In this document: positions 9,999 through 27,271 of the stretch, in pieces
Numbering within the stretch: the stretch's first letter is position 1
Layout: each line of letters starts with the position of its first letter
NCBI GenBank assembly: GCA_964588985.1
Contig: CAZPQW010000002.1
Span: forward strand, 32,001-96,000
Reading direction: 5' to 3'
Length of the DNA: 64,000 nt
Source: an uncultured Solirubrobacteraceae bacterium
GTDB taxonomy: Bacteria > Actinomycetota > Thermoleophilia > Solirubrobacterales > Solirubrobacteraceae
Made by a program: the position numbers and the translations under genes
Notes under the pieces: generated by a model
What the model was told of the DNA's origin: nothing
Databases searched by the model: none
The model's input: the letters and a program-made list of their open reading frames with translations, nothing else

Positions 9999-10040
9999 AG
10001 ACGTTCCCCTCTCACGTGGATTGCTTGCATCTGCGGGCGC

Positions 10041-10078
10041 CGAAGACCCCTTCGAAGACCCCCTGTCTATTAGAAGAC
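10041..10078. repeat. CGAAGACCCC tandem direct repeat in divergent promoter
   Basis: CGAAGACCCC at 10041-10050 and 10053-10062; partial GAAGAC at 10073-10078. Confidence 0.45.
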
Positions 10079-10198
10079 AACCCTACAGCCGAGAAATCAC
10101 GCGGACATGAGAATTTATTTTCGATCTCGCGTACGCTGTCAGGCGTATTTCGGCGTGGATGCTTGGGTCATGGACGTTTCGGGCATAGGAGATGGAAC

Positions 10199-12277
10199 AT
10201 GAGGAACGCAAGGCTGCTGGGCGCACTCGCATCGGTCTCCGTAGGCGCATTCGCCGCGGCTGGAGCGGCCCAGGCCGCGCCGTCGCGCACGGTGGTGCAG
10301 AGCAGCGCACCCGCCGCCGCCTCGGCCAACGAGGTCGCCGCGACGCCCGCGTCCACGCCGATCGAATTCAGCGTGGGCCTGCGATTGAGCGACCCGGCAG
10401 GCGCGGTTGCGCTCGAGCGCGCGGTCTCGGACCCGGGCAGCCCCAGCTTCCACCGCTACCTGACCCCCGCCCAGTGGGAGCAGCGCTACTCGCCCACGCC
10501 GGCCTCGGTCCAGGCCGTCACGGCCTGGCTGAAAGCGGAAGGCATCGCCGTCGAATCGGTCCCCCCCGACCGCATGACCGTTCACGCGAGCGCATCGGCG
10601 GCCACGATCGAGCGCGCGTTCGGCACGAGCCTCGGCGAGTTCCGCCACCAGGGTCGCGTCGTGCGGCTCGCCTCGACGCCTCTGCAGGTGCCAAGCGGGA
10701 TCGCCTCGCTCATCACCGGCGTCACCGGGGTGGACCAGAGCCTCGCAACTCCAGGCGCCACCGGCGCCGACACCCGCCGTGCGGCGAAGGTCTCCGGGCA
10801 GGAAATCCCGCAGCCGCCCGGCTTCCGCAACGCCACGCCGTGCTCGCCCACGTACGGCAAGCAGCTCGACACCACCGATCCCGCGTACGGAGGCGGCTAC
10901 CCCACGCCGCTGCCATACGCGGTCTGCGGCTACATCCCGGCCCAGCTCCAGGGCGCCTACGGGCTCACGCCGAAGATCGCCGCCGGGATCGACGGCAAAG
11001 GCGTGACCGTCGCGATCGTCGACGCGTACGCATCGCCGACGCTGCTGAGCGACGCGCAGCACTACAGCCAGCTCAACCAGCCCACGCAGGTGCTCGGCAG
11101 CGGCCAGTTCAGTGAGCTGCTCAGCAAGTCCTTCAGCGACATCGAACTCTGCGAAGCCAGCGAATGGTCCGGCGAGCAGACGCTCGACGTCGAGGCGGTC
11201 CACGCGACAGCGCCCGGCGCGAAGATCCTCTACGTGGGAGCGAAGAACTGCATCGGCGGTCTCTACGACTCTGTGCAGCAGATCGTCGATGGGCACCTCG
11301 CGAGCATCGTCACCGACTCCTGGGGAGACGACGGCGGGGACCTGCTCGACTCGCCGCAGTCCCGGGAAGGCTTCGACAACGTCCTGCTGATGGCGGACGG
11401 GACGGGCGTCGGCGTGCAGTTCTCCGCGGGCGACGAAGGCGACGAGTTCGCCAACCTCGGGATGACGGTCGCGGACTACCCGTCCTCGAGCCCGTACGCC
11501 ACCTCGGTCGGCGGCACGAGCCTGCAGGTCGGTGAGCACGGCGCCCGCGTCGGCGAGCTGGGCTGGTCGACCTCGAAGAGCGTGCTCTGCACCCCGCTGT
11601 TGCAGCTCGAAGGCTACCCCGGCTGCAAGGCGGCAAAGCTCGGCACGTGGCTGTCGCCGGCGCCCGGCGCCTACCTCTACGGTGGAGGCGGCGGGACGAG
11701 CTACGAGTACGCCGAGCCGTGGTACCAGGAAGGCATCGTGCCCGCGGCGCTCGCCGAACGCAACAGCAGGATCACGGGCATCGCGAACAGGGTCGAGCCG
11801 GACATCTCGATGGACGCGGACCCGACGACCGGCATGCTCGTCGGCGAGACACAGGAATTTCCCGACGGCACCTACTACGACCAGTACCGGATCGGCGGGA
11901 CGAGCCTGTCCTCGCCGCTGTTCGCGGGCGTGATGGCCGACGCAGACCAGGCGGCCGGGGTCTCGCTCGGCTTCGTCAACCCACTTCTCTACAAGCTGGG
12001 GGCTTCTCCCGGCTCGGCGGCCGCCGACTTCTACGACGTGGTGCCCGGCGGCAAGCAGGCGCTCGTCAGGAACGACTACCTCGACGGCGTCGACGCGAAC
12101 GAAGGGACGATCACCTCGGTGCGCGTGCTCGACTACCAGGGCCGCGAGATCTTCTGCAGCGGCACGGGCAACTGCACCAAGCAGAAGGTCGCGCTCGACA
12201 CGGCGCCCGGGTTCGACTCGATGACCGGGCTCGGCACGCCGCGCTCGGCGCTGATCGCGGCGCTGGCCAAACCCTGA
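10199..12277 (+). CDS. S53 (sedolisin/kumamolisin) serine peptidase with pro-domain
   Basis: Signal peptide, pro-kumamolisin region (RYLTPAQW), EQTLDVE catalytic Glu/Asp, SAGDEG, GGTSLSSP catalytic Ser, GFDSMTGLGTP. Confidence 0.93.
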   Translation: MRNARLLGALASVSVGAFAAAGAAQAAPSRTVVQSSAPAAASANEVAATPASTPIEFSVGLRLSDPAGAVALERAVSDPGSPSFHRYLTPAQWEQRYSPTPASVQAVTAWLKAEGIAVESVPPDRMTVHASASAATIERAFGTSLGEFRHQGRVVRLASTPLQVPSGIASLITGVTGVDQSLATPGATGADTRRAAKVSGQEIPQPPGFRNATPCSPTYGKQLDTTDPAYGGGYPTPLPYAVCGYIPAQLQGAYGLTPKIAAGIDGKGVTVAIVDAYASPTLLSDAQHYSQLNQPTQVLGSGQFSELLSKSFSDIELCEASEWSGEQTLDVEAVHATAPGAKILYVGAKNCIGGLYDSVQQIVDGHLASIVTDSWGDDGGDLLDSPQSREGFDNVLLMADGTGVGVQFSAGDEGDEFANLGMTVADYPSSSPYATSVGGTSLQVGEHGARVGELGWSTSKSVLCTPLLQLEGYPGCKAAKLGTWLSPAPGAYLYGGGGGTSYEYAEPWYQEGIVPAALAERNSRITGIANRVEPDISMDADPTTGMLVGETQEFPDGTYYDQYRIGGTSLSSPLFAGVMADADQAAGVSLGFVNPLLYKLGASPGSAAADFYDVVPGGKQALVRNDYLDGVDANEGTITSVRVLDYQGREIFCSGTGNCTKQKVALDTAPGFDSMTGLGTPRSALIAALAKP

Positions 12278-12400
12278 GCGGCACAGCAGGTCGGACTGCT
12301 TGCGAGCGTTCGCACGCCGGTTGAACGCCTGTCTAAACCACCACGTCCAGATTTTGGCCCGCTGATCATGTGGGCGCTCGACACGCGCTGCAATAGTCGA

Positions 12401-12503
12401 CATCGCCCTAGGGTTCCGCTGCCACCGCTGGCAGGTCTGGTCCGAGAGGGCGGGCCGGCACTTACATAGCCGAGCTGACACGGAGGGATAAAAGCCCGGG
12501 AGA
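12401..12503 (+). ncRNA. Guanidine-I (ykkC-yxkD) riboswitch
   Basis: CTAGGGTTCCG...CTGGTCCGAGAG...GACACGGAGGGATAAAAGCCCGGGAG matches the ykkC consensus; P1 CGCCC/GGGCG, hairpin CTGCCA/TGGCAG; lies upstream of cgdAB and atzF. Confidence 0.93.
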
Positions 12504-12527
12504 CATCGTGATCTCTCGGGCCTTTTT
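12494..12527 (+). terminator. Riboswitch-controlled intrinsic terminator
   Basis: GCCCGGGAGA (12494-12503) pairs with TCTCTCGGGC (12512-12521), followed by CTTTTT; left arm overlaps the aptamer 3' end. Confidence 0.88.
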
Positions 12528-12546
12528 GCGTTGAAAGGTCGTCTTC

Positions 12547-13161
12547 TTGCAGCTGATCGGCAGGACAGCACTGATTCTGATCGATGTCCAAAAGGGCGAG
12601 GTGCTGCCCGGCGAGCACGGCATCGCGATCATGTCGGGCGGCGAGGAGAGGCACGAGCGCACACAGGCGCTGCTCGCGGCCGCACGGGCCGCGGGGATAC
12701 CTCCGATCTTCATCCAGGAGGTCCACAAGCGCTCGCTCGTCGACTTCGGTCGCGAGCTCGACGGTGAGGAGACGATTCACTGTCTCGAGGGAGATGTGGC
12801 GACCGAGCTGGCGGACGGCATCGAGCCGCTCCCCGAGGAGTACCTGATTCGCAAGCGCCGCTACTCGGCGTTTTTCGCCACCGAGCTCGAGCTGGTCTTG
12901 AAGTCATATGAGATAGAGACGCTCGTGTTGGTCGGCGCACTCACCGACGTGTGCGTTCACTACACCTTCGCCGACGCCCACCAGCACGACTACCACTGTC
13001 GCGTCGTCACGGACTGTGTGGGCGGTTCCTCCGACGCGGCGCACGAAGCCGCGCTGTCCGCGATGCGCTACCTGCAGCGCGACTGCCTGACGACCAGCGA
13101 CGAGGTGCTCGACGCGTTTGCCGAGATCGGCGCCCGGTCGAGCGTGGGTGCGCTCGCATGA
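12547..13161 (+). CDS. Isochorismatase-family cysteine hydrolase
   Basis: Asp-Lys-Cys triad motifs IDVQ, KRRYSAF, TDVCVHYT; TTG start with GAAAGG RBS. Confidence 0.9.
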   Translation: MQLIGRTALILIDVQKGEVLPGEHGIAIMSGGEERHERTQALLAAARAAGIPPIFIQEVHKRSLVDFGRELDGEETIHCLEGDVATELADGIEPLPEEYLIRKRRYSAFFATELELVLKSYEIETLVLVGALTDVCVHYTFADAHQHDYHCRVVTDCVGGSSDAAHEAALSAMRYLQRDCLTTSDEVLDAFAEIGARSSVGALA

Positions 13162-14975
13162 GCATCATCGAGAGACGGCCCGCGCTGGAGGTGGAGGACC
13201 TCCATGTCACGTTCCGCTCTCCCGCGGGGGACGTCCAGGCGCTGCGCGGGGCGACGCTCACGGTCGGGCGCGGTGAGATCGTCGGCCTCGTGGGCGAGTC
13301 CGGCTCGGGCAAGACGGTGCTCGGGTTGACGGCGCTCGGCCTGCTGCCGCGCACCCCGCACCCGGAGGTGACCGGCACCGTGCGCCTCGACGGGGAGGAC
13401 ATGGTCGCGGCGAGCGAGGACGAGCGTCGCGCGCGCCGCGGCTCCTACATCACAGCCGTCTTCCAGGATCCGATGGGCTCGCTCAACCCGTCGATGCGCA
13501 TCCAGGCGCAGGTCGCGGAGGCCCTCGGCGGCGAGGGCGAGGGCGATCAGTCCGAGCTGATCCACGAACTGCTCGCCCACACGGGGATCCCCGAGCCGGA
13601 TGTGAAGGCCCGCTGCTACCCGCACGAACTCTCCGGCGGCCTGCGCCAACGGGTGATGATCGCGATGGCGCTCGCGCGCAACCCGCGTCTGGTCGTCGCC
13701 GACGAGCCCACCACCGCGCTCGACGTGACCGTCCAGGCGCGCGTGCTCGACCTGCTCGCCGGAGCCGCACGCGAGCGCGGGGTGGCGCTGCTGCTCGTCA
13801 CTCACGATCTCGGTGTCGCGGCCCGCGTGTGCGACCGCATCGCGGTGGCGTACGCCGGCAAAGTGGTCGAGATCGGCAGGGCCGCGCAGATCCTCTCGCG
13901 TCCGCGCCACCCCTACACCGTAGGTCTGCTCGCGAGCCGTCCGCGGCTCGACGGCTCGATCGCCGGCGGGGACCTGCCGACGCTTCCGGGCCAGCCGCCC
14001 GACCCCCGCAGCCCAGCCGTGGGCTGCGCGTTCGCCGCGCGCTGCCCGGTCGCCGACGAGCAGTGCGCCGCACCCGCTCCCGTCGTGCTCGAGGAGGGGA
14101 GACGGTGCGAGTGCCACCGCCCGGGGGCTCTCGAGACGTGGCCGCTCGCGCCGCTCCGAGTGCGCAGCGGCGAGCCGGTGGGTATCGGCCATCCGCTGCA
14201 CGTAGCCAACGGCTCGATCCCGATCCCCGCACTCGTCGTCGAGGACCTCGAATGTCACTTCCCGCGACCGCGCCGCCACCCACTCGCGTCCGCTCCCGAG
14301 CCGCTGCGCGCCGTCGCCGGAATCAGCCTCAGGGTCCCGGCCGCGGGCTCCCTCGCGATCGTCGGCGAGTCCGGCTCCGGCAAGTCGACGCTGCTGCGCG
14401 CGGTCGTCGGGCTGCTCACGCCCACCGCCGGAACCATCACGCTCGGCCCGGGCGCCTCGCCGCAGCTGATCTTCCAGGACGCGGGCGCCTCGCTCACGCC
14501 GTGGATGCCCGTCGGCGCGCAGATCTCCGAGCGTCTCGCGACGCTGAACGTGCCGCGCGCCGAGCGCGCCGCCCGCGTCGCGAGCACGCTCGAATCGGTC
14601 GGGCTGCCGGCCGAGGTCGCCGCGGTCGTTCCGCGCAAGCTCTCCGGGGGACAGCGCCAGCGCGCGGCGATCGCCCGCGCGATCGTCGTACCGCCCGCGC
14701 TGCTCGCGTGCGACGAGCCTGTCTCCGCACTCGACGTGTCGCTCGCCGCGCAGGTGCTCAACCTCCTGTGCGAGCTGCGCGCCACGCTCGGCATCGCGCT
14801 GCTGTTCGTCACGCACGACCTCGCCGCCGCGCGTGCGGTCGCCGACGAGGTCGCCGTCGTCAAGGAGGGCATCGTCGTCGAGCACGCCGCGACCGAGCAG
14901 ATCTTCATCTCGCCGCAGCACCCGTACACGCGCGAGCTGATCGCCGCCGTTCCCGACCTAGCGGAGGCCGCATGA
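13158..14975 (+). CDS. Peptide/nickel-type ABC transporter ATP-binding protein (fused OppD-OppF)
   Basis: Two Walker A GESGSGK motifs, LSGG signatures, [21 protein letters not shown]. Confidence 0.93.
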
Positions 14976-15898
14976 GCCTCGCGGTGGATAGGCGCGTGAC
15001 GCCGGTGGCGGCCGTCGCCGCGGGGAAGCCCGAGTCGGTCGGCGGACCCCAGCCGCTGCGCCTGCGCCTGTGGCGCGGACGCCCGCTCGCCTCCGCGGGG
15101 AACCAACGCGCGGGGGTAGTCGCCGCATTGATCCCGGTCGGGGCGATGACGCTCGTCGCGCTCGCGGCGCCGCTGCTCGCGACGCACACCGCGACCGGCG
15201 TCACCACGATCGGGCCGCTGCACGCGCCCACCTTCAGCTACCCGTTCGGCACCGACGACATCGGCCGCGACGTGTTCTCGCGCGTGCTGTACGGGATCCG
15301 CGAGTCGTGGCTCGGCGCGATCGGGGTGATCGCGGTCGGCGCGCTCTTCGGCGGGCTGCTCGGCGCGCTCGCCGGCGCGATCGGCGGGTTCGTGGACACC
15401 GTGCTGATGCGCCTCACCGACCTGTTCCTCGCGCTGCCCGCGCCGGTGCTCGCGATCGCGGTGATCGCCTCGATCGGCCCGAGCCTGTTTCACACGCTGC
15501 TCGCGCTCTCGATCGTGTGGTGGCCGTGGTACGCGCGGATCGTGCGCGGCGAGGTGCGCGCGCTCGCGTCGCGGCCGCACGCCGAAGCCGCCCGTCTGGC
15601 GGGCGTCGGTCGCGTGCGGCTCGTGGTCCGCCACCTCGTGCCCGGGGCGCTCGCGCCGGTGATCGTGACGATGTCGCTCGACGTCGGCAACCTGATCCTC
15701 GCGCTCTCGAGCCTCTCGTTCATCGGCCTCGGTGCGCCGCCGCCGGCGCCCGAGCTCGGGGCGATGAGCTCTCAGGGGCTCGAGTACCTCTTTGGACACG
15801 CGTGGGTGCCGCTGGCCCCCGCCGCCGCTGTGGCGCTGCTCGCGCTCGCGGCCAACCTCATTGGTGATCACGCCAATCGGAGACTCGACAAAGGATGA
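14972..15898 (+). CDS. Peptide/nickel ABC permease (DppC/OppC-type)
   Basis: FGTDDIGRDVFSRVLYG, LSFIGLG..PP.PELG; ATGA overlap. Confidence 0.92.
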   Translation: MSLAVDRRVTPVAAVAAGKPESVGGPQPLRLRLWRGRPLASAGNQRAGVVAALIPVGAMTLVALAAPLLATHTATGVTTIGPLHAPTFSYPFGTDDIGRDVFSRVLYGIRESWLGAIGVIAVGALFGGLLGALAGAIGGFVDTVLMRLTDLFLALPAPVLAIAVIASIGPSLFHTLLALSIVWWPWYARIVRGEVRALASRPHAEAARLAGVGRVRLVVRHLVPGALAPVIVTMSLDVGNLILALSSLSFIGLGAPPPAPELGAMSSQGLEYLFGHAWVPLAPAAAVALLALAANLIGDHANRRLDKG

Positions 15899-15902
15899 CC
15901 AG

Positions 15903-17471
15903 ATGATCCAGCGACACCGAATCACCCTTGCCCTGATCGTCCTGATGGGCATGGCTCTCGCCGGCTGCGGCTCGGCCTCCACGACCTCGTCCACCAGCAC
16001 CACGGCGAGCACCACGAGCGGCGGCAGCGACATCCTGCGGATCCCCTATCTGGCGGATATGTCGGTCCCCGACCCCGACATCTTCTATGACATCGAGGGC
16101 AACTCGGTGATCCTGTCGACCTACGAAGGGCTGCTCACATACGCCCCCGGCACCACCAAGCTGGTGGGGGCGCTCGCGACGAGCTGGACGGTCGCACCAG
16201 ATCGACTCACCTACACCTTCCACCTGCATCCGGGCGTTCACTTCCACGATGGGACCGCGCTCACATCGAAGGCGGTCAAGGCGAGCTTCCTGCGTCGCCT
16301 CGCGGTCGGCCAGGCGCCGTCCTACATGCTCAAGCCGATCGCGTCGATGAGCACGCCCGACCCGCTCACGCTGGTCGTCAAGCTCAAACACCCGGTCAAC
16401 CCGTTCCTCGACTACCTCGCCTCCAGCTGGGGCCCGAAGATCATCGGCCCCGAAGCGATCGTCACCCACGCCGGCAGCGACGAGGGTCAGAAGTGGCTGC
16501 AGACGCACGACGACGGCACCGGTCCGTTCCGGCTGACCGCGTTCGAACGGGGCCGCCAGTACGTGCTCACCCGCTCGGCGAACTACTGGGGAGCGAAGCC
16601 GTTCTTCAAAGAGGTCCTGATCAAGATCACGCCCGACATCGGCACCCAGCAGCTCGAGCTCAAGAACGGTGGGGTGGACGCGATCCTTCACTCCTTCCCC
16701 GCCTCCGAACTCAGCTCGCTCCCGTCGAACGTGCGCGTCGAGGAGGACAAGTCGTTCCTGCGCCTGCTCCTGTACGTCAACACGCAGAAGCCGCCGTTCA
16801 ACGACCCGGCGGTGCGCGCGGCGCTGCGCTCCACGATCAACATCCCGCAGCTCGTGAGCGAGGCGTACTCGGGCACCGCGACCGCATCCACCGGCGCGTA
16901 TCCCGACGGTCTGCTGCCGAGCCAGCCGCCGCTCGAATACACGCCCAGCACCGCGGCCGCGGCCGCCGGTGTGAAAGCCGCGTCGACCAAGTCCATCACC
17001 CTCGGCTACACGGCCGACGAGTCCGGCGTGCAGCGACGCGTCGGCGAGCTGCTGCAGGCGGACCTCGAAGCCGCCGGCTGGCAGGTGACGGTCAAGGAGG
17101 TGCAGCTGCCGCAGGTCTACGGCTACATCAACGACCTCAAGGCCGCGCCCGACCTGCTGCTGCAGACCAACACCCCGGACGCGGCCAACCCCGACACGTG
17201 GGCGCGGATCGTCTTCTACTCGACCGGTGGCCTGAACTTCCTCGGCTACCACGACGCGAACGTCGACCGTCACCTCGACGAAGCCGTGAGCGCCGAACCC
17301 GCGAAGGCGACCGCGCTCTACCAGCAGGTGGGCAAGGAAGTGATCGAATCGAACGAGATCTTCTTCCTCGGCGACGTGAAGAACGTGTTCGTGCTCAACA
17401 AGTCCCTCTCGGGCGTCGAGCAGATCCCGGCCTACCCGTGGACCGTGAGCCTCGCGGCGCTGAAACGGTGA
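15903..17471 (+). CDS. ABC transporter substrate-binding lipoprotein (family 5, DppA/OppA-type)
   Basis: Lipobox ALAGC, YEGLL, LATSW, YTFHLHPGVHFHDG, GTGPF. Confidence 0.92.
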   Translation: MIQRHRITLALIVLMGMALAGCGSASTTSSTSTTASTTSGGSDILRIPYLADMSVPDPDIFYDIEGNSVILSTYEGLLTYAPGTTKLVGALATSWTVAPDRLTYTFHLHPGVHFHDGTALTSKAVKASFLRRLAVGQAPSYMLKPIASMSTPDPLTLVVKLKHPVNPFLDYLASSWGPKIIGPEAIVTHAGSDEGQKWLQTHDDGTGPFRLTAFERGRQYVLTRSANYWGAKPFFKEVLIKITPDIGTQQLELKNGGVDAILHSFPASELSSLPSNVRVEEDKSFLRLLLYVNTQKPPFNDPAVRAALRSTINIPQLVSEAYSGTATASTGAYPDGLLPSQPPLEYTPSTAAAAAGVKAASTKSITLGYTADESGVQRRVGELLQADLEAAGWQVTVKEVQLPQVYGYINDLKAAPDLLLQTNTPDAANPDTWARIVFYSTGGLNFLGYHDANVDRHLDEAVSAEPAKATALYQQVGKEVIESNEIFFLGDVKNVFVLNKSLSGVEQIPAYPWTVSLAALKR

Positions 17472-17478
17472 GCCGCTG

Positions 17479-18480
17479 ATGCCCACGCTCCTCGCCCAAC
17501 GCCTACTCGCCCTGGTAGCGGTCCTGTTCGGGCTGGCGGTGATCGTGTTCGTGCTGCAGGCCGTGATCCCGGCCGACCCGGCACGGGCGATGGTCGGCGC
17601 CAGCGCACCGAAGTCGGTGGTGGAAGCCAAGCGCCACGAACTGGGCTACGACAAACCGCTGCCGCAGCGGTTCCTGGAGTACGTGGACCGCCTCCTCCAC
17701 GGCAACCTCCAGGAATCGCTGCGGACGCGCAACCCGGTGAGCAAAGACCTCGCGACGTTCGCCCCGGCGACGCTCGAACTGGCGCTCGCCGCGGCGGCGA
17801 TCGCGGGGGTGCTGGGCGTTGGGCTCGGGCTGGCGCTCGTCGGCGCGGGACGGGCGGCGCGGCTGCTGCGGATCGTGCTGATCAGCGGGGCGTCGGTGCC
17901 GACGTTCCTCACGGCGCTGCTCGCGATCCTGCTGTTCTACTCGACGCTTCACCTGCTGCCGGCGTCGGGGAGGGTGGACGACACGCTCGTGTTGCCGTCC
18001 GGGCCGACGAAACTGCTGCTGGTCGACTCGCTGCTGCACGGCGAGCCGAACCTGCTGTGGAGCACGCTCACGCACCTGCTGATGCCCGCGCTCACGCTCG
18101 CGCTGCTGCCGGCGCTCGCGATCGCGCGCACGCTTGCGACGTCGTGCGAGAAGGTGATGCGCGAGGACTACGTGCGCACGGCGCGCTCGAAGGGGTTGAG
18201 GGAGCGCAGGGTGCTGCTGCGCCACGCGCTGCGCAACGCGAGCGGCCCCGCGCTGACGATGAGCGGGCTGCAGTTCGGCCTGCTGCTCGGCGGGATCGTG
18301 GTGGTCGAGCAGATCTTCGCGTGGCCCGGCCTCGGCCTCTATCTCGACCAGTCGATCGCCTATGCGGACTTCCCCGCGATCACCGGCACGACGCTGCTGC
18401 TCGGCACCGCGTACGTGCTGGTGAACTTCCTCGTCGACCTCTCCCAGGCATGGGCGGACCCGCGCATCAGGACGGTTTAG
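17479..18480 (+). CDS. Peptide/nickel ABC permease (DppB/OppB-type)
   Basis: PADPA, LGYDKPL, ATLELA, DYVRTARSKGL, FAWPGLG, DPRI. Confidence 0.93.
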   Translation: MPTLLAQRLLALVAVLFGLAVIVFVLQAVIPADPARAMVGASAPKSVVEAKRHELGYDKPLPQRFLEYVDRLLHGNLQESLRTRNPVSKDLATFAPATLELALAAAAIAGVLGVGLGLALVGAGRAARLLRIVLISGASVPTFLTALLAILLFYSTLHLLPASGRVDDTLVLPSGPTKLLLVDSLLHGEPNLLWSTLTHLLMPALTLALLPALAIARTLATSCEKVMREDYVRTARSKGLRERRVLLRHALRNASGPALTMSGLQFGLLLGGIVVVEQIFAWPGLGLYLDQSIAYADFPAITGTTLLLGTAYVLVNFLVDLSQAWADPRIRTV

Positions 18481-18482
18481 AA

Positions 18483-19208
18483 ATGTCCGCTGCCACAGGG
18501 GCACAACCGCTCTACCAGGACGAGCTCCCATCCGCGGGCGCTCGCTCGTGGACGTGCCGTCGCGGCACCGCGCTCACTCTGACCGACCTGGCGGGCGGGG
18601 CGAACGTGTCCGCGCTGCTCTACAGCGCAGCGAACCCGCTCGAGCGCTACTGCATGCCCGACACGCTCAAGGCGCAGCACGTCAGCCGCCTCACCGCGGG
18701 TGTTGCGCTGTATTCCGACATGGGGCGCGTGCTCGCCTCGATCGTCGAGGACGGATGTGGCTGGCACGACACCATCTCCGGCCACGCCACGGCCGAGACG
18801 GTCGCCTCGAAGTGGGGAGCAAACACGTACCAGCAGGCGCGCAACGAGTGGAGGCGCAGTGCACGAGAGGCGTTCCTCGTGGAGCTCGCAAAGCACGGCC
18901 TTGGACAGCGTGACCTACATCCAAATATTAATTTCTTCTCCAAGGTGGAGGTCGAGGACGAGGAGACCGGCGCGCTCAGTTACGTCGCGGGCAACTCTCC
19001 CGCCGGCTCGCACGTGACGCTGCGCTTCGAGCTGGACACGCTGATCGTGCTGTGGAACGGCCCGCACCCGCTCGCCGAGGAGTGGCTTGCGCGACCGGTG
19101 CGCGTCACGCTCGAGCACTTCCCGACGGCCGGCGCCGACGACGCGGTTCGCACGAGCTGCGAGGAGAACGAACGCGGCTTCGCGGTCACCGAGGCGGCGC
19201 TCGCGTGA
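18483..19208 (+). CDS. cgdA: Urea-carboxylase-associated DUF1989 protein 1 (carboxyguanidine deiminase subunit)
   Basis: [38 protein letters not shown]; position next to the carboxyltransferase gene. Confidence 0.88.
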
Positions 19209-19852
19209 GCGTGTCCGTGCAGAGCGAGGAGCGCTCCGAGCTCGCCGCGCGGCTCGTCCTAGACGTGCCCGCCGGCGAGGGCTTCGCGCACGAGCTCGCC
19301 GCGGGGGAGACGCTTCGGATCGTCGACCTGCACGGCAACCAGGCCGTCGACACGCTGTTCTTCGACGCGCACGACTACGCCAACCGCTACAGCGCGGTCG
19401 ACACGCTGCGCGAGCAGGGCGGCGTGTACCTCGGGCTCGGCTCGCGGCTGCTCGCGCTCGACGGGACGGCGCTCGTGACGATCGTGGGGGATACGTGCGG
19501 ACGCCACGACACGCTCGGCGGCGCCTGCTCGCAGGAGTCGAACGTGGTGCGCTACGGCGAGCACACCCGCCACATGCACGCGTGCCGCAACACGTTCCTC
19601 GCGCAGGCGCGCGAATGGGGGCGAGGACTCGACAAGCGCGACCTCACCGCGAACGTGAACTTCTTCATGAACGTGCCGCTCACACCCGAGGGTGGCCTGG
19701 AGTTCGTCGACGGCGTCTCAGCGCCCGGGAAGTACGTCGAGCTGCGCGCCGAGCGCGACACGCTCGTGCTGATCTCCAACTGCCCCCAGCTCAACAACCC
19801 CTGCAACGCGTTCGACCCGACCCCGGTGCGCCTGCTCTTCTGGCCGTCATGA
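19205..19852 (+). CDS. cgdB: Urea-carboxylase-associated DUF1989 protein 2 (carboxyguanidine deiminase subunit)
   Basis: [41 protein letters not shown]. Confidence 0.9.
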
Positions 19853-21816
19853 GCGCGATCGAGGTCCTCGCGCCGGGCGCGTTCACGACCGTCCAGGACT
19901 GGCCTGGGCGCACCGGCTTCTGGGAGGTCGGCGTGCCGCCGTCCGGCCCGATGGACAGCCGCTCGCACAGGATCGGCAACCGCCTGCTCGGCAACGCCCC
20001 CGACGCGGCCGGCCTCGAGGTCACGCTGACGGGCCCGAAGCTCCGCTTCCTCGTGGACGCGACCGTCGCGATGACGGGCGCGCCGCTCGCCGTCACGCTC
20101 GACGGCGAGACAGTCCCGCAGTGGACCGCGCTCGACGTTCCCGCCGGGGGAGTGCTGTCGCTCGGCACGATCCGCGGCGCCGGGATGCGCGCGTACGTGA
20201 CGGTGCGCGGCGGCATCGCGGGCGCACCGGCGATGGGCAGCCGCGCGGTCTTCTCCCCGGCTGGTCTCGGGGGCGGGCAGCTGCGCCGGGGCGAGCTGCT
20301 CGCGCTCGCCGGCGGCGAGACGCGGGGGAGCGCATCCGAGTTTGCTGTCAGCCCGCCCGCGTTCTCCAACGAGGTCAGCCTGCGCGTCGTGCTCGGCCCG
20401 CACGGCGCCCCCGAGCTCCTCACACCCGACGGCCTCGTGGAGCTGCTCGACGCGGACTGGGTCGTGGACCCGCACTCCAACCGCGCGGGGGTGAGGCTCG
20501 CCGGCCCACGGCCGGGCTGGTCGCGATCGGACGGCGGCGAAGCGGGCCTTCACCCGTCGAACATCCTCGACAGCGCATACAGCGTCGGCACGGTGATGCT
20601 CACCGGCGACATGGCGGTGATCGTCGGGCCGGATGGCCCGAGCCTCGGCGGCTTCGCAGCGTTCGCGCAGGTGATCCAGGCCGACCTGTGGCGCCTCGGG
20701 CAGCTGCGCGCTGGCGACCGCGTGAGACTGCGGGCCGTCGGCGTTCGCTACGCGGCCGCGCTGCACGCCGACGCGGAGCGCGAGATCGAAGGCGGCGGCG
20801 TGGGGCTGCGTGCGCCGGTCTCGACGAACGCCCTCAAGCCCACCGTCGAGTTCGACCGCGCCTACGACGGCGCGCACGGACTCGCGACGTTCCGCCGCGC
20901 GGGCGAGCGAGCGGTGCTGATCGAGTTCGGCGATCCGGTGCTCGACCTGCGCTCGCGGGTGCGCGCGCAGACGCTCCGGATCGCGCTCGAGGAGCTCCAC
21001 ATCGACGGCGTGCTCGACATCACCCCGGGCGTGCGCTCGCTGCACATCCAGCACGACCCCGACACGCTCGCCGCGGAGAGCCTGATCGACGCGCTCGCGC
21101 GCCTGGAGTCCTCGCTGCCGGCGCCCGAGCGGTCGGCGATCCCCGGGCGCACGGTGCACATGCCGCTGAGCTGGGGCCACAGCGAGGTCCTGCGGGCGGT
21201 CGGACGCTACGAGAGCGTCCGCGCGGGCGCCCCCTGGTGCCCCGACAACGTCGACTTCATCCGCCGCATGAACGGCCTGCCCGACGAGCGCGCGGTCCGC
21301 GAGATCGTCACGAGCGCCGCGTATCTGGTGCTCGGGCTGGGCGACGTCTACATGGGCGCGCCGGTGGCGGTGCCGCTGGATCCGCGCCACCGGCTCGTCA
21401 CCACCAAGTACAACCCTCCGCGCACCTGGACGCCCGCCAACGCGGTCGGGATCGGGGGAGCGTTCCTGTGCGTTTACGGCGTCGAGGGGCCCGGCGGCTA
21501 CCAGCTCGTGGGCCGCACCACGCCCGTGTGGCACGCCGGCGACGACCCGCCGTGGCGGCTGCGCCACTTCGACCAGCTGCGCTTCGAGCTCGTCGAGGAG
21601 GACGAGCTGGAGGAGCTGCGCAGGCTGAGCGAGCGCGGCGCGTGGGCGCCGCGGACCGAGCCGACCGCCTTCTCGCTGGTCGAGCACGAGCACTTTCTGG
21701 AGGAGCACCGCGAGGAGATCGCGGCGTTCACCGCGCGGCGCGACGCCGCGTTCGCCGCCGAGCGCGACGCGTGGAGCATGACCGAGACCGCCACCACGGC
21801 AAAGGTCGCGGCGTGA
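19849..21816 (+). CDS. Urea/guanidine carboxylase carboxyltransferase domains only (no biotin carboxylase, no BCCP)
   Basis: [85 protein letters not shown]; 655 aa, ends at AAERDAW plus a short tail. Confidence 0.9.
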
Positions 21817-23546
21817 AGCTCGACATCGCCACGCTTCTCGCCGGCTACCGCGACGGCTCCACGAGCCCATCGCGCGTCGCGCAGGAGTTGATCGACCGGC
21901 TTGCCAAGCCACAGGAGCAGCAGCTATGGATCGCACGGGTGAGCGACGAGGCGCTGCGCGCGGCGGCCGCCGCGCTGGACGAGGCCGACCCGTCGCTTCC
22001 GCTCTACGGCATCCCGTTCGCGGTGAAGGACAACATCGACGTCGCCGGCATGCCGACCACGGCCGGCTGCCCGGGCTTCTCATACGCCGCCACGCGCACC
22101 GCGACGGTCGTGCAGCGGCTCCTCGACGCCGGCGCGATGCTGATCGGCAAGACGAACATGGACCAGTTCGCCACCGGCCTCGTCGGTACGCGCAGCCCCT
22201 ACGGCAGCTGCTCCTCGGTGGCCGACCCGGCGCGCATCAGCGGAGGCTCGAGCTCCGGCTCGGCGGTGGCGGTCGCGCTCGGTTACGCGTCGTTCGCGCT
22301 CGGGACAGACACCGCCGGATCGGGGCGCGTCCCCGCGGCGTTCAACGGCCTCGTCGGCGTCAAGCCCACACGGGGCCTGCTCAGCACCCGCGGCGTCGTG
22401 CCCGCGTGCGCGAGCCTCGACTGCGTGTCGGTGTTCACCGGCACCGTCCCCGACGCCGCGCGCGTGCTCGACGTGGTGGCGGCGTTCGACCTGGAGGATC
22501 CGTGGAGTCGACCCGAGGCCGTGTGCGACTCGCCGCGGCGTGGACGGATCGGCGTGCCGCTCGTCGGCCAGGTCGAGCAGGAGGAGTCCGCGGCGACGCT
22601 CGCGTGGGCGCAGGCGGTCGAGCGCGCCGGCAACCGCTGGACGCTCGTGGAAGTCGACATCGACCCGCTCCTGAAAGCAGCGCCGCTCCTGTACGAGGCG
22701 TGGGTCGCGGAGCGGACCGCCGACCTCGCACCGCACATCGAAGCGGAGCCAGAGGGCCTCGACCCGACCGTCGCCGCGATCGTGCTCGGCGGGCGCGAGA
22801 CGAAGGCGACCGACGTGTTCCGCGCGCAGCACCGCCTGCGCGAGCTCGAGCGCGCGGCCGCCTCGATCTGGGAGCGGGCCGACGCGCTGCTGCTGCCCAC
22901 CACCGCTCTGCATCCGACGCACGCCGAGGTCGCAGCCGATCCGGTGGGGACGAACAGCCGCCTCGGGCGGTTCACGAACTTCGTCAACCTGATGGACCTC
23001 TGCTCGCTCGCGCTGCCGGGCGCGCCGCGGCCCGACGGGCTGCCGTTCGGCGTGACGCTGCACGCGCCCGCCCACCACGACCGCCGGCTGCTGGAGCTCG
23101 GCTGCGAATGGAGCTCGCAGCCGGCCAGCGTCGAGCTGCCCGGCGTCGTGAGGCTCGCGGTGGCTGGCGCCCACATGACGGGGATGCCGCTGAACGACCG
23201 CCTCACCGAGCGCGGCGCGCGGCTCCTCGGCACTGCTCGCACGGCGCCCAGCTATGAGCTGTACGCGCTCGCGAACGGCGGCCCGATCGCGCGCCCCGGC
23301 GTCGTGCGCGTCGAGGACGGCGGCGCGAGCATCGAGGTCGAGGTGTGGGAGCTGTCTCGCGCGGCGCTGGGCGCGATCGTCGAGGAGGTGCCGGGCCCGC
23401 TCGCGATCGGCCACGTCGAGATGCTCGACGGCACGCGGATCTGCGGGTTCGTGTGCGAGGGCTACGCCGTCCACGGCGCAACCGACATCACCGCCCACGG
23501 CGGCTGGCGCGCATACCTCGAGGCGCCCGTGACGACGCCGGCGTGA
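21813..23546 (+). CDS. atzF: Allophanate hydrolase
   Basis: LPLYGIPFAVKDNID, GKTNMDQFATGLVGTRSPYG, GGSSSGSA, GTDTAGSGRVPA, TNFVNLMD; C-domain VAGAHM.GMPLN and GGWRAYL. Confidence 0.95.
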   Translation: MKLDIATLLAGYRDGSTSPSRVAQELIDRLAKPQEQQLWIARVSDEALRAAAAALDEADPSLPLYGIPFAVKDNIDVAGMPTTAGCPGFSYAATRTATVVQRLLDAGAMLIGKTNMDQFATGLVGTRSPYGSCSSVADPARISGGSSSGSAVAVALGYASFALGTDTAGSGRVPAAFNGLVGVKPTRGLLSTRGVVPACASLDCVSVFTGTVPDAARVLDVVAAFDLEDPWSRPEAVCDSPRRGRIGVPLVGQVEQEESAATLAWAQAVERAGNRWTLVEVDIDPLLKAAPLLYEAWVAERTADLAPHIEAEPEGLDPTVAAIVLGGRETKATDVFRAQHRLRELERAAASIWERADALLLPTTALHPTHAEVAADPVGTNSRLGRFTNFVNLMDLCSLALPGAPRPDGLPFGVTLHAPAHHDRRLLELGCEWSSQPASVELPGVVRLAVAGAHMTGMPLNDRLTERGARLLGTARTAPSYELYALANGGPIARPGVVRVEDGGASIEVEVWELSRAALGAIVEEVPGPLAIGHVEMLDGTRICGFVCEGYAVHGATDITAHGGWRAYLEAPVTTPA

Positions 23547-24574
23547 AAGCCCGCTACCACCACCTTCCGGCCACCCCCGAGAACGTCCACTGGGGATACT
23601 TCGACCACGCGCTCGAGCCGGTGCTGACGGTCTCCTCGGGCGATCTGGTCGCTATCGAGACGCTCACCCACCACGCGGGCGACGCGCCCGACCTGCTGAT
23701 GGACGCGGGCATCGAGCGCGTGTTCGAGCAGGTGCAGGAGCGCGGGCCCGGGCCGCACCTGCTGACCGGGCCGATCGCGCTCGCCGGCGCGCGCCCGGGC
23801 GACGTGCTCGAAGTGGAGATCCTCAGCGCCGAGCCGCGATTGCCGCACGGCTCCAACCTCGCGGGGCACTGGGGCGCGCTGTACGAGGACTTCGCCAAGG
23901 AGCGCGTGACGATCTTCGAGCTCGACCTCCAGGCGATGCTCGGACGCGCGCTGTTCGCGTTCGACTGGCAGACGACCCCGCTCGTGGACTCGCCGGGGAC
24001 GATCGTCGTGCCCGGCAGCGTCGCGCGCGAGGCGGCGCTTGAGGGCGTCACGATCCCGCTGCGGCCACATCTCGGGACGATGGGCGTGGCGCCCGCGGCG
24101 AAGGGGAGGCACTCCTCGGTCCCGCCGGGCGAGCACGGCGGCAACATCGACAACTGGCGGATCGGCGCGGGCGCGCGGATGCTCTACCCGGTGCAGGTGC
24201 CCGGCGCCCTGCTCTCGCTCGGCGACCCGCACGTCTCCCAGGGCGACGGCGAGATCAGCGGCACCGCCCTGGAGGCGTCGCTAGACACGGTCGTGCGCCT
24301 CACGCTGCGCTCGGACATCACACTCAGCGGGCCGCTGCTGGAGACGCCGACCGAGCTGATGGTGCACGGGTTCGGCGACGACCTCGACGAGGCGATGGGA
24401 GTTGCCGCGCGGCGCACGATCGAGCTGCTGGGCTCCCGCTTCGGGCTCAGCCGCGACGACGCCTACTCCTTCTCGAGCCTCGCGGTGGACTTCACCGTCA
24501 CGCAGGTCGTCGACTCCCGCCAGGGCGTGCACGCCCGCATCGACAAGCGCTGCTTCCCCTTCGCCGGCGCGTGA
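23543..24574 (+). CDS. Acetamidase/formamidase family protein
   Basis: VHWGYF, HLLTGP, GGNID, GDPH.SQGDGE.SGTA.E, QVVD. Confidence 0.9.
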   Translation: MKARYHHLPATPENVHWGYFDHALEPVLTVSSGDLVAIETLTHHAGDAPDLLMDAGIERVFEQVQERGPGPHLLTGPIALAGARPGDVLEVEILSAEPRLPHGSNLAGHWGALYEDFAKERVTIFELDLQAMLGRALFAFDWQTTPLVDSPGTIVVPGSVAREAALEGVTIPLRPHLGTMGVAPAAKGRHSSVPPGEHGGNIDNWRIGAGARMLYPVQVPGALLSLGDPHVSQGDGEISGTALEASLDTVVRLTLRSDITLSGPLLETPTELMVHGFGDDLDEAMGVAARRTIELLGSRFGLSRDDAYSFSSLAVDFTVTQVVDSRQGVHARIDKRCFPFAGA

Positions 24575-24978
24575 TCGAGTCCTGGACGTTCACCCCCGCC
24601 GAAGGCGTCCCGCCGCGGGTCGCGCCGTTCGCGCACGCGACCGCCACCGGCGAGACGCTCTACGTGACCGGCCAGATGCCGACGGGCCTCGACGGCGAGC
24701 TGATCGCCGGCGGGGTGGTCGAGCAGACCGATCGGGTGATGCGCAACCTCGCGCGCGTGCTCGAGATGCTCGGCGGCGGGCTCTCCGACGTGGCGCAGAC
24801 GCGCGCCTACCTGCTGCACTGGGACGACTACGCGGAGTTCAACACCGCCTACGAGCGGTGGTTTCCCGAGCGCCTGCCGAGCCGCACGTGCGTGGGCGTG
24901 AGTGGGCTCGCGGCGGGCGCGCTCGTGGAGGTCGACCTCGTCGCGTGGCGCGCGGGAGGCTGGGCCGCCGCGCCATAG
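24571..24978 (+). CDS. RidA/YjgF family imine deaminase
   Basis: YVTGQMP, FNTAY, PSRTCVGV..LA.GALVE. Confidence 0.9.
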   Translation: MIESWTFTPAEGVPPRVAPFAHATATGETLYVTGQMPTGLDGELIAGGVVEQTDRVMRNLARVLEMLGGGLSDVAQTRAYLLHWDDYAEFNTAYERWFPERLPSRTCVGVSGLAAGALVEVDLVAWRAGGWAAAP

Positions 24979-24988
24979 CGGTTCGGGG

Positions 24989-25822
24989 CTACTCGGGCAC
25001 CGAGTGCGTGGGCGCCGCCACGTCCGGCGCCAGCTCCCTCAGCAACTGTGGCCACACCTCGGGGTCGTGCCCCGGGATCAGCCGGTAGCCGCGCTCGGCT
25101 GCGATCGCGTTGAGCCGGCGGATGGCGGGGAGCGTGTCCTCGGCCTGGCAGTGGACGAACCCGCCGACAGCCAGCTCGCGCTCGAAGTTCTCCGTCAGAT
25201 CGCCGGCGTCGAACGCGAACACGTAGCCGCTCCCGTCGGGCATGTCGATCACGAAGCTCTGATGCCCCGGCGTGTGGCCGGGTGTGAGCACAGCGGTGAT
25301 CCCGGGCGCGAGCTGTGTGTCGCCGTCCATCAGGCGCCAGTCGATGTCGGGGTCGTCGTAGTCGATCCGGAACATGCCGTGGCGCTCGGGGAAGGGGTGA
25401 TCGGCGAGCCCGTACTCCAGCTCAGACCGCTGCACCCACACGGGCACGCTCGGATCGAACAGCCGCAGTCCGCCAGCGTGATCGTTGTGCAGGTGGGAGA
25501 GATAGATACGCGTGACGTCCGCGAGCCGGACGCCGTGCGCCGCGAGCGCGTGCTCCAGGGGCTCGCCGTCGCCATCGGGCAGGATCGCGGTGATGTCGTG
25601 GTTACGCCCGTGCAGACGTTCGCGCAGCGGGAGGTCGCGGATCAGGGCGGTGTTGAAGCCGGTGTCGAGCAGCGTCCAGCCGTCGTCGGTGTCGAGGAGG
25701 ACCGCGGGGACCGGCTCGATCAACATCGCGCCGGATTCCTCGCCGTGGACCGAGTAGGACTTCGGCAGGCGCTCCCAGCCGAGGATCAGGGGAATCACCC
25801 TGCGCACGCTCGTCTCGCTCAC
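24989..25822 (-). CDS. N-acyl homoserine lactonase-family metallo-beta-lactamase
   Basis: SHLHNDHAGG (HxHxDH), TPGHTPGHQS, FDAGD, PGHDP; TAAGAT -10 box 7 nt before GTG. Confidence 0.88.
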   Translation of the reverse strand: MSETSVRRVIPLILGWERLPKSYSVHGEESGAMLIEPVPAVLLDTDDGWTLLDTGFNTALIRDLPLRERLHGRNHDITAILPDGDGEPLEHALAAHGVRLADVTRIYLSHLHNDHAGGLRLFDPSVPVWVQRSELEYGLADHPFPERHGMFRIDYDDPDIDWRLMDGDTQLAPGITAVLTPGHTPGHQSFVIDMPDGSGYVFAFDAGDLTENFERELAVGGFVHCQAEDTLPAIRRLNAIAAERGYRLIPGHDPEVWPQLLRELAPDVAAPTHSVPE

Positions 25823-25900
25823 ACGCTGGATCTTAGGCGTGTACGCCGGCGGCGTTCGTGTCAACCTCGGACTCGGTGGGGTCTGTCACCCTGTCTGGAG

Positions 25901-27271
25901 GTGAACGCCCTCCCTCCCGGACCGACGGAGTCCCCCGCGGTGCAGATCACGCGCTGGCTGGTGCGCCCGATCGCGTTCATGGAGTCCTGCAGGCGACGCT
26001 TCGGCGACGCGTTCAGCGTGCGCTTCCCGGGCTTCGAGCGGCCGATGGTGATGCTGTCCGACCCCGAGGCGATCAAAGCCCTCTACACCGCGCACGAGCA
26101 CGGCCTCCCGCCGGGGCGCACGGTCACGCTGCTGCCGGTGATGGGGCCGAGCTCGATCCTGCTGCTGGAGGGCGGCGAGCACCTCGCGCGACGCAAAATG
26201 ATGCTGCCGCCGTTTCACGGCGCGCGGATGCGCTCGTACGAGTCGATCATCCGCGAGACAACCGAACGCCAGATCGACACCTGGCCCACTGATCAGCCTT
26301 TCGCGCTCCACCCCCACATGCAGGCGATCACGCTCGAGGTGATTCTCGAGGCGGTCTTCGGCGTGACCGACCAAGCGCGCGGCGAGCGGCTGCGCGAACG
26401 CCTGCCGATGCTGCTGCACGAGACATCCTCCACGGCTATCCAGTTCCGCTTCATCCTCGCCAGGCGCCTCGGAGTCGGCGACCCGCTGGCCCGGCTGAAG
26501 GAGATCACCGCGGGCATCGACGAGCTGCTGCTCGCCGAGATCTCAGACCGCCGCTCGGACCCCCTGCTGGACGAGCGCGAGGACATCCTCTCGCTGCTGA
26601 TCGTCGCGCGCTTCGACGACGGCGGCGCGATGAGCGACCGGGAGCTGCGCGACCAGCTCGTGACGCTGCTGCTCGCCGGCCACGAGACGACCGCGACGGG
26701 GCTCGCGTGGACGTTCGACCTGCTGCTCCGTCACCCAGCGGCGCTCGCGCGCCTCACAGCCGAGGTCGATGCGGGCGAGGACGTCTATCTGCGCGCGGTC
26801 GTCAGCGAGTCGCTGCGGCTGCGCCCGGTCGTGCCGCTCGCCGGACGGCGCCTGGCCTCAGAGCTCCACGCGGGGGAGTTGAACCTCCCCGCCGGCGCGG
26901 ACGTCACGCCCGCGATCTGGCTAACACACACGAGGCCGGACCTGTATCCCGAGCCGTACGCGTTCCGCCCCGAGCGCTTCGTGGAGAACCCGCCCAGCGG
27001 CTATGGGTGGATCCCGTTCGGCGGCGGCGTGCGGCGTTGCCTGGGGGCGAGCTTCGCGGAACTCGAGATGCGGGTGGTGCTCGAGACGATCCTGCGCCGC
27101 AGCGTGCTGGAGTCGGCGAGCGCGCGCGCGGAACACCCCACGCGCCGCAACGTGACCCTCTCACCGCGCAAGGGCACGCGGGTGCGCAGCCACGGACGGG
27201 TGGGCGCGCCCACTCGTGTGATCCGCGACGCGGACGGACTGAGCGCGGAGCCGGCTGGCGTCAGCTCGTAG
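25901..27271 (+). CDS. Cytochrome P450
   Basis: LPPGP, AGHETT, ESLR (ExxR), PERF, FGGGVRRCLG heme motif. Confidence 0.95.
   Translation: MNALPPGPTESPAVQITRWLVRPIAFMESCRRRFGDAFSVRFPGFERPMVMLSDPEAIKALYTAHEHGLPPGRTVTLLPVMGPSSILLLEGGEHLARRKMMLPPFHGARMRSYESIIRETTERQIDTWPTDQPFALHPHMQAITLEVILEAVFGVTDQARGERLRERLPMLLHETSSTAIQFRFILARRLGVGDPLARLKEITAGIDELLLAEISDRRSDPLLDEREDILSLLIVARFDDGGAMSDRELRDQLVTLLLAGHETTATGLAWTFDLLLRHPAALARLTAEVDAGEDVYLRAVVSESLRLRPVVPLAGRRLASELHAGELNLPAGADVTPAIWLTHTRPDLYPEPYAFRPERFVENPPSGYGWIPFGGGVRRCLGASFAELEMRVVLETILRRSVLESASARAEHPTRRNVTLSPRKGTRVRSHGRVGAPTRVIRDADGLSAEPAGVSS

Follow-up and report, generated by a model that had tools for sequence, protein, structure and literature searches.

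Guanidine carboxylase operons headed by a Guanidine-I riboswitch have been described in Pseudomonas syringae, Raoultella and Vreelandella boliviensis and, in those accounts, have in common the switch at the operon head, CgdAB, AtzF and an importer (PMC12186494, PMC12508155, PMC11410670). Position 1330 of the carboxylase (Kluyveromyces lactis numbering) is described as the residue that discriminates substrate, with Asp for guanidine and Asn for urea (PMC12186494, PMC11410670), and the criteria given in PMC11410670 for a guanidine carboxylase are Asp at 1584 together with Asp at 1330, urea carboxylase having Asn at the latter position. Here, a related operon was analyzed in a 64,000-nt stretch of DNA (the window) from an uncultured Solirubrobacteraceae bacterium (assembly GCA_964588985.1, contig CAZPQW010000002.1, positions 32,001 to 96,000). 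It follows a Guanidine-I riboswitch and encodes CgdAB, AtzF and, between them, a homologue of guanidine/urea carboxylase consisting of the carboxyltransferase (CT) part alone, designated CT*. The operon is most likely a guanidine-induced nitrogen-scavenging operon, a variant of the guanidine carboxylase pathway.

In the proposed route, CT* would turn guanidine into carboxyguanidine, acting like a beta subunit that receives carboxybiotin in trans from a single AccBC-type protein combining biotin carboxylase (BC) and biotin carrier domain (BCCP). CgdAB would convert carboxyguanidine to allophanate and NH3, and AtzF would split allophanate into 2 NH3 and 2 CO2. The chances that CT* handles guanidine with carboxybiotin supplied in trans are put at about even, and the alternatives are weighed below where the evidence touches them.

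The operon and its riboswitch

The operon comprises 11 plus-strand genes from 12547 to 24978, downstream of the riboswitch and its terminator. Coordinates are those of the window.

12397..12504, +, Guanidine-I riboswitch aptamer (RF00442, 82.8 bits, full model 1-107)
12494..12530, +, intrinsic terminator, the expression platform (10-pair stem and T-run; hairpin in the minimum-free-energy and centroid folds)
12547..13161, +, isoC, isochorismatase-family cysteine hydrolase (PF00857, 142 bits)
13158..14975, +, fused double ATPase of an Opp/Dpp/Nik-type ATP-binding cassette (ABC) importer (ABC_tran twice, oligo_HPY twice; DppD/OppD/NikD-type matches)
14972..15898, +, ABC permease, DppC/NikC-like (BPD_transp_1; best NCBIfam matches Opp2C and NikC, all below cut-off)
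15903..17471, +, family-5 solute-binding protein with a signal-peptide or lipoprotein-like N-terminus (SBP_bac_5, 210 bits; below all NCBIfam cut-offs)
17479..18480, +, ABC permease, DppB/NikB-like (BPD_transp_1 and BPD_transp_1_N)
18483..19208, +, carboxyguanidine deiminase subunit, UAAP1-type DUF1989 (TIGR03425, 271 bits, cut-off 206)
19205..19852, +, carboxyguanidine deiminase subunit, UAAP2-type DUF1989 (TIGR03424, 308 bits, cut-off 285)
19849..21816, +, CT*, carboxyltransferase-only guanidine/urea carboxylase homologue (CT_A_B and CT_C_D only; TIGR02712 positions 447-1114 of 1201)
21813..23546, +, allophanate hydrolase AtzF (Amidase and AH_C; TIGR02713, 702 bits, cut-off 511)
23543..24574, +, FmdA/AmdA-family amidase, accessory (PF03069, 106 bits; formamidase model 70 bits, cut-off 500)
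24571..24978, +, RidA-family protein, accessory (PF01042, Ribonuc_L-PSP, 93 bits)

The starts of the solute-binding protein (15903), the first DUF1989 gene (18483) and the amidase (23543) were refined. Seven of the ten gene junctions are 4-nt stop/start overlaps (ATGA or GTGA), and the other three are gaps of 2, 4 and 7 nt. Two adjacent DUF1989 paralogues, each above the cut-off of its own model, make up CgdAB, and both CgdAB and AtzF are canonical as judged by the curated model cut-offs.

Infernal aligned the RF00442 model over its full length (positions 1-107 of 107) at 82.8 bits, with E 3e-13 and a gathering score of 63. This is the sole gathering-level Rfam match in the window, where no Guanidine-II element was found inside the operon at that level, and the single RF00442 match across the entire 3.41-Mb genome (95.9% complete). 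The terminator stem is G+C-rich, with 10 pairs at 12494-12521 followed by CTTTTTG, and its hairpin dominates both the minimum-free-energy and the centroid fold. The 5' arm of the terminator is the 3' strand of the aptamer's last helix, GCCCGGGAGA, an overlap by which expression platform and aptamer compete. Since the two structures share one strand, the element is read as a transcriptional ON switch in which guanidine binding would block termination, and an overlap of this type is the usual layout for such a switch. As read from its sequence, the Guanidine-I aptamer, with its last helix competing with the terminator, identifies free guanidine as the signal of the operon. A GAAAGG Shine-Dalgarno-like motif lies between the switch and the first operon gene. 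In the closest genome relative (locus L008), a tRNA gene (2373-2444) lies about 115 nt 5' of the riboswitch; no tRNA was found anywhere in the 64-kb window.

An earlier note, made from the letters of this DNA, had read a Guanidine-I riboswitch and terminator here, had proposed the RF00442 check, and had listed the genes, their order and their mostly overlapping stop and start codons. The Infernal score, the 10-pair stem with its T-run, the seven overlapping junctions out of ten and the Pfam and NCBIfam matches for every named family bear this out. Its description of the carboxylase as carboxyltransferase-only, and of the pathway as non-canonical, also agrees with the domain analysis that follows.

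CT* is a carboxyltransferase-only carboxylase homologue

CT* is a single chain of 655 amino acids (aa) in which neither Pfam nor NCBIfam models detect an ATP-grasp BC or a BCCP, and Pfam finds no Biotin_lipoyl domain. It scores 768.7 bits with TIGR02712, below the cut-off of 1303.85. Because the cgdB stop overlaps the CT* start, there is no hidden BC remnant upstream. The protein aligns end to end with the CT domain of the K. lactis carboxylase (474 bits to 3va7).

A collection of 5.8 billion proteins was searched, and the best 120 matches of similar length and the best 120 longer matches were compared. The former have 611-708 aa, are 60-76% identical to CT* and contain CT domains only; several come from named Solirubrobacteraceae. 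The latter are full-length carboxylases of about 1200 aa, 48-53% identical to CT*. Since a close full-length relative would have outranked these best 120 longer matches, there is none in that collection. As indicated by these comparisons, CT* is a real conserved family and no accident. Wider scans of genome and metagenome contigs with the single protein gave few close loci (L008, L068, L070 and short pieces; L071 appears to be the same as L008), the rest being 30-36% relatives. No description of the CT* clade, of the gene combination or of a BC-less guanidine carboxylase was found in the literature searched, outside which lay the primary pathway papers and the bioRxiv supplements.

K. lactis numbering was mapped through alignments to 3va7 and 5i8i, and the mapping is consistent: the mapped columns hold Asn and Asp in K. 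lactis itself. In CT*, the 1584 position is D499 and the 1330 position M250. Among the best 120 homologues of each kind, the 1330 column holds Met in 119 of the 119 CT-only sequences aligned there and Asp in 120 of the 120 aligned full-length ones. CT-only proteins fetched from genomes have Met in the window and in L008, L046, L053, L052, L054, L055, L068, L069 and L070, and Ile in L047-L050; the full-length enzyme of genome G132 (L051) has Asp. All five CT* subclades differ from the Asp type at six positions, which include the change of Asp to Met or Ile and the loss of a Cys: position 271 of CT* is Ala, where Cys is 99-100% conserved in both Asp- and Asn-type enzymes. In an alignment of 44 rows, D499 (Asp1584), K520 (Lys1605) and Y543 are invariant, Y543 being what we take as the counterpart of K. 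lactis Tyr1628. Lys1605 is described as the likely essential general base of the CT reaction (PMC5770610).

The residue change raises the question of substrate. A biotin-dependent CT* could act on another compound, such as an alkyl-guanidine, a neutral amidine or a ureide, with a Met/Ile pocket fitting a non-polar substituent and guanidine serving as inducer alone. Position 1330 is, after all, the published discriminating residue (PMC12186494, PMC11410670) and is hydrophobic in all five CT* subclades, and the operon has an unusual Opp-type importer and extra amidases. Against this, CgdAB and AtzF score above the equivalog thresholds set for the canonical enzymes, three Met-type subclades stand under Guanidine-I switches, and the single Guanidine-I example whose testing is described in PMC12508155 rejected methylguanidine. 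An altered substrate is therefore considered rather unlikely.

Gene neighbourhoods in relatives

The survey covered 151 evenly sampled genomes of the order, and 401 genomes of the phylum. Eleven of the 151 order genomes carry a carboxylase-family CT gene (E below 1e-140), ten of them CT-only and one full-length (G132). The CT* genes occur in three arrangements.

In the first, found in the window, L008, L046 and L068, the order is riboswitch, isoC, Opp-type ABC importer, cgdA, cgdB, CT* (Met) and atzF. L068 also has the amidase (84% identical to that of the window) and RidA (77%); L008 and L046 have no orthologue of the amidase, and L046 is without atzF at this place. At L053 (G013, 8865-9596), the second half of permB comes immediately after the Guanidine-I aptamer, as if isoC and the greater part of the ABC importer had been deleted; CT* matches in two pieces at this locus.

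The second arrangement (L047-L050) consists of a GntR/UTRA regulator, an APC permease, cgdA, cgdB, CT* (Ile) and atzF. Three of the four loci end with isoC, and no GntR gene was seen in L047. These sister clusters thus have an APC permease where the window operon has its Opp-type importer, and no Guanidine-I match was found at any of the four.

The third (L052 and L054) is riboswitch, cgdA, cgdB, CT* (Met) and atzF with nothing else, adjoined by a divergent APC permease, the type predicted for guanidine uptake in nitrifiers (PMC11410670). Guanidine-I switches head L052, L054, L053, L008, L046 and the window operon. No isoC orthologue was found in the genomes of L052 and L054, where CT* is the sole candidate for making the CgdAB substrate. 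Since the riboswitch there controls just cgdA, cgdB, CT* and atzF, guanidine would be the business of CT*.

Phylogeny and a second CT-only lineage

A tree of 96 CT regions was built (FastTree, LG+gamma, midpoint root), with rows covering at least 560 of 655 columns and fragments left out. A single clade of 20 tips (SH-like support 0.996) holds the CT-only Met/Ile sequences, along with one degenerate sequence with Val. The clade stands beside an Asp-type group, the joint node being weakly supported (0.80). Some distant CT-only relatives have no catalytic residues and form a 'degenerate' group.

Three loci from another family of the same phylum (L100-L102; genomes G218, G232 and G259) show the order cgdA, cgdB, CT and, in part, atzF. 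Their CT-only proteins keep both Asp1330 and the conserved Cys and form a clade of their own (support 0.999) among full-length actinobacterial enzymes; no BC was found within about 8 kb of them and no Guanidine-I match at these loci. Judging from the tree, BC and BCCP have been lost at least twice in Actinomycetota, with L100-L102 as an independent second loss. In addition, three Asp-type homologues of 873-896 aa (P0243, P0244 and P0246) have no BCCP and begin with a stretch of about 224 aa in which nothing beyond a sub-threshold Biotin_carb_C trace is seen; they could represent stages in the erosion of BC, or else fragmentary gene calls.

Across the clade, BC and BCCP are gone and Met or Ile stands in for the charge-pairing Asp, while the general base is kept. 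This coincidence could also be taken to mean that CT* is a guanidine carboxylase independent of ATP and biotin. A Met/Ile pocket would bind neutral guanidine and dissolved CO2, the retained Lys and Asp would do the proton work, and CgdAB and AtzF, possibly in a complex, would pull the reaction, giving a CO2-catalysed, energy-free conversion of guanidine to three ammonia. Such a scheme gains from the minimal riboswitch operons, which encode no other guanidine activator, and from the translational coupling of CT* to cgdB and atzF. We know of no precedent for biotin-free guanidine carboxylation, however, and carbamate formation from guanidinium is, by our own estimate, very unfavourable. L100-L102, CT-only with an intact Asp site, indicate that loss of BC and BCCP needs no new chemistry, and no DUF1989-CT fusion was seen among the 10 representatives scanned. 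This chemistry is regarded as improbable.

Possible source of carboxybiotin

The genome has one BC domain (PF02785), fused to BCCP in a 606-aa AccBC-type protein on another contig (contig 8), and four AccD-type carboxyltransferase genes (PF01039), so that one alpha subunit serving several partners is already the rule here. Between 2 and 4 BC domains were counted in the other CT*-bearing genomes, in each case away from the cluster. In the cryo-electron microscopy (cryo-EM) study of the Mycobacterium smegmatis long-chain acyl-CoA carboxylase by Liang and Rubinstein, the free-standing CT homologues MSMEG_0435-0436 are described as binding the AccA3 complex and holding the biotin of the AccA3 BCCP domain, placed fit for carboxyl transfer (bioRxiv 10.1101/2025.10.28.685139). 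By analogy, supply of carboxybiotin in trans is structurally plausible in this phylum.

The same structure provides a precedent for CT* as a non-catalytic regulator that sequesters the biotin of AccBC, the role proposed there for MSMEG_0435-0436, and the distant 'degenerate' CT-only relatives, which have lost their catalytic residues, fit such a role. CT*, in contrast, keeps D499, K520 and Y543, is always found between cgdB and atzF with overlapping codons, and shares its guanidine switch with catabolic enzymes, which makes regulation alone very improbable.

Several observations weigh against CT* as a guanidine carboxylase supplied in trans. It is without the Asp1330 demanded of a guanidine carboxylase by the criteria of PMC11410670; it has lost the conserved Cys at 271 and differs at position 209 too; and its active site has thus been altered in step with the disappearance of BC and BCCP, so that other chemistry or another substrate is conceivable. 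The four Ile-type clusters are regulated by a GntR/UTRA protein and not by the riboswitch. At none of the 10 loci examined does a BC or BCCP gene lie within about 10 kb of CT*, so the genomes link it to no particular partner. Finally, the preprint reports no urea carboxylase activity detected for MSMEG_0435-0436, which its authors read as regulators (bioRxiv 10.1101/2025.10.28.685139).

A free-standing 70-aa biotinyl-carrier protein was considered as a specific partner of CT* and rejected, being near-universal in the order (145 of 151 genomes, a tally that includes G057 and G036) with no co-occurrence signal. Its gene (L003, 1501-1710, minus strand, contig 19 of the window genome, G000), whose best match is a carboxylase BCCP model, lies between biotin synthase-like (bioB) and enoyl-CoA hydratase-like genes, as judged by eye from the translations. 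About 54 kb past the window end on contig 2 (150389-152131, minus strand, L005), an AccD-type CT (PF01039, 275 bits) and a biotinyl-domain match share one frame of 624 aa, possibly a carboxyltransferase carrying its own BCCP-like domain.

The isoC hydrolase and the importer

D13, K103 and C136 of isoC, an Asp-Lys-Cys triad, are invariant in 8 of 8 aligned sequences, and its orthologues carry conserved motifs of their own. Orthologues at least 47% identical are present in 8 of the 11 CT-cluster genomes, with one weak match (34%) in the other 140; they occur in three different gene arrangements, on another contig than the cluster in G110, and next to a full-length Asp-type BC-CT carboxylase in G132. 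Since isoC is missing in L052 and L054 and present beside a full-length carboxylase in G132, it is dispensable and not coupled to the loss of BC and BCCP.

The substrate was approached by comparison. The guanylurea hydrolase gene of Pseudomonas mendocina MET (BB_00025, pMET-2) was picked by its description in PMC9800807 as a cysteine hydrolase next to a nucleoside deaminase. Identity of isoC to this enzyme, which had been purified, is 35% over 184 residues, and the enzyme has two insertions (5 and about 13 residues) without counterpart in isoC; biuret hydrolase likewise has insertions. Scores of isoC are similar against biuret hydrolase, N-carbamoylsarcosine amidase-like and unassigned structures, and it stays below all NCBIfam cut-offs, including that of the BiuH model NF050097 (80 bits against 370, residues 82-174 only). 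According to PMC9800807, identity between guanylurea hydrolases and family members with another function can be as high as 65%. An N-carbamoyl or N-acyl compound yielding guanidine, carboxyguanidine or allophanate is an economical guess for the substrate.

The earlier note had gone further, explaining the missing ATP/biotin modules by hydrolysis: a guanylurea-like compound would be imported, isoC would make carboxyguanidine from it for CgdAB without ATP or biotin, and CT* would be at most a binding or channelling protein. Neither operon nor surroundings hold a BC or BCCP; isoC comes first after the riboswitch, is phylogenetically tied to the cluster and has the triad, in the same superfamily as guanylurea, biuret and N-carbamoylsarcosine hydrolases; and CT* has lost Asp1330 and the conserved Cys. 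All of this would fit. The neighbourhood search, however, brought up riboswitch-run cgdAB-CT*-atzF operons without isoC (L052, L054) and isoC together with a full-length, BC-containing carboxylase (L051). The hydrolytic route also gives no role to CT*, though this is conserved with its catalytic Asp and Lys, and it could not degrade the free guanidine that the switch senses. In addition, isoC is just 35% identical to the characterised guanylurea hydrolase and is missing its two insertions, and related clusters use an APC permease, a type predicted to import guanidine itself (PMC11410670). Hydrolytic supply is accordingly held to be improbable as an explanation.

Carboxyguanidine, which the earlier note presented as the established immediate product of the guanylurea hydrolase GuuH, was its own chemical inference; the product given in PMC9800807 is guanidine. 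In tying the hydrolase to the pathway the note was right in spirit, given 8 of 11 cluster genomes against at most 1 of 140 others. Its overall interpretation thus stands for the operon content and the non-canonical pathway and is not supported for the hydrolytic bypass; what is new here lies in the CT* clade and in its control by a guanidine switch.

With CT* retained as the carboxylase, isoC would be a lineage-specific accessory. Its most likely reaction is removal of an N-carbamoyl or N-acyl group from a precursor that is brought in by the Opp-type importer. Its product (guanidine, carboxyguanidine or allophanate) would enter the core route, and isoC would not replace the carboxylase. The FmdA/AmdA-family amidase, whose best solved chain is 3b9t, a structure with no assigned function, and RidA would be further accessories. 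As for the importer, the nearest solved chains of the solute-binding protein bind varied ligands. NikA/B/C/D/E-type models are among the best matches of the importer proteins, all below cut-off except for one score of the double-domain ATPase, and no Ni enzyme was found near the operon.

Flanking genes and other nitrogen routes

The genes around the operon are as follows.

9527-12277, +, peptidase of 916 aa, sedolisin-like, with pro-kumamolisin activation and S8/S53 domains, upstream
24989-25864, -, metallo-beta-lactamase-fold protein, convergent, downstream
25916-27271, +, cytochrome P450, downstream

They are unrelated to the pathway, and the operon limits given in the earlier note therefore hold. 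Neither a urease alpha subunit nor an arginase-family protein was found in the 95.9%-complete genome, which makes the operon the only recognisable guanidine-nitrogen route of this genome.

Comparison with known systems

Compared with the guanidine carboxylase operons, the window operon differs in its carboxylase, which has no BC or BCCP and has Met for Asp1330; in its importer, of the Opp/Dpp/Nik type and not the ABC type drawn in those papers; and in the added cysteine hydrolase, FmdA-family amidase and RidA. It has no internal Guanidine-II element. Extra feeder genes as such are shared with V. boliviensis, whose operon is described as carrying inserted mgdH/mgdL.

Full-length carboxylase (TIGR02712; 3va7, 5i8i) and CT* have in common the CT domain with equivalents of Asp1584, Lys1605 and, presumably, Tyr1628. 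CT* differs in its partial model match below cut-off, in Met at 1330 and in Ala for Cys at 271. Whichever way CT* works, the published rule, which asks for a full-length protein with Asp1330, misses the whole clade, so that it would be undercounted when guanidine use by soil Actinomycetota is surveyed. If CT* were biotin-free, it would be a new way of activating guanidine.

isoC resembles GuuH of P. mendocina GU, and BB_00025 of strain MET, in its isochorismatase-like fold and Asp-Lys-Cys triad, and guanylurea hydrolase is reported to feed the guanidine carboxylase pathway in its host (PMC9800807). A pathway-linked hydrolase together with an Opp-type importer points to a natural guanidine precursor.

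PxpBC (KipI/KipA) of the ATP-dependent 5-oxoprolinase has the same CT_A_B and CT_C_D folds and works without biotin. CT*, in contrast, gives 120 bits with the PxpC model (cut-off 500) and 51 with PxpB (cut-off 146) and clusters inside the carboxylase family; no PxpA gene was found in the operon.

MSMEG_0435-0436 are, like CT*, an actinobacterial free-standing urea carboxylase CT homologue without BC or BCCP of its own. Unlike CT*, they are two small proteins, are described as missing key catalytic residues and have no reported link to CgdAB, AtzF or guanidine (bioRxiv 10.1101/2025.10.28.685139). CT* is far closer to the true carboxylases, with 474 bits to 3va7 against 103 to 3mml and its catalytic residues kept. 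Should CT* indeed work with AccBC, the binding of KipA/KipI-like proteins by the mycobacterial AccA3 complex, so far unexplained, would gain a catalytic reading, and CT* would be the first enzyme of the urea carboxylase family built on the plan of the actinobacterial acyl-CoA carboxylases, in which many carboxyltransferases share one alpha subunit.

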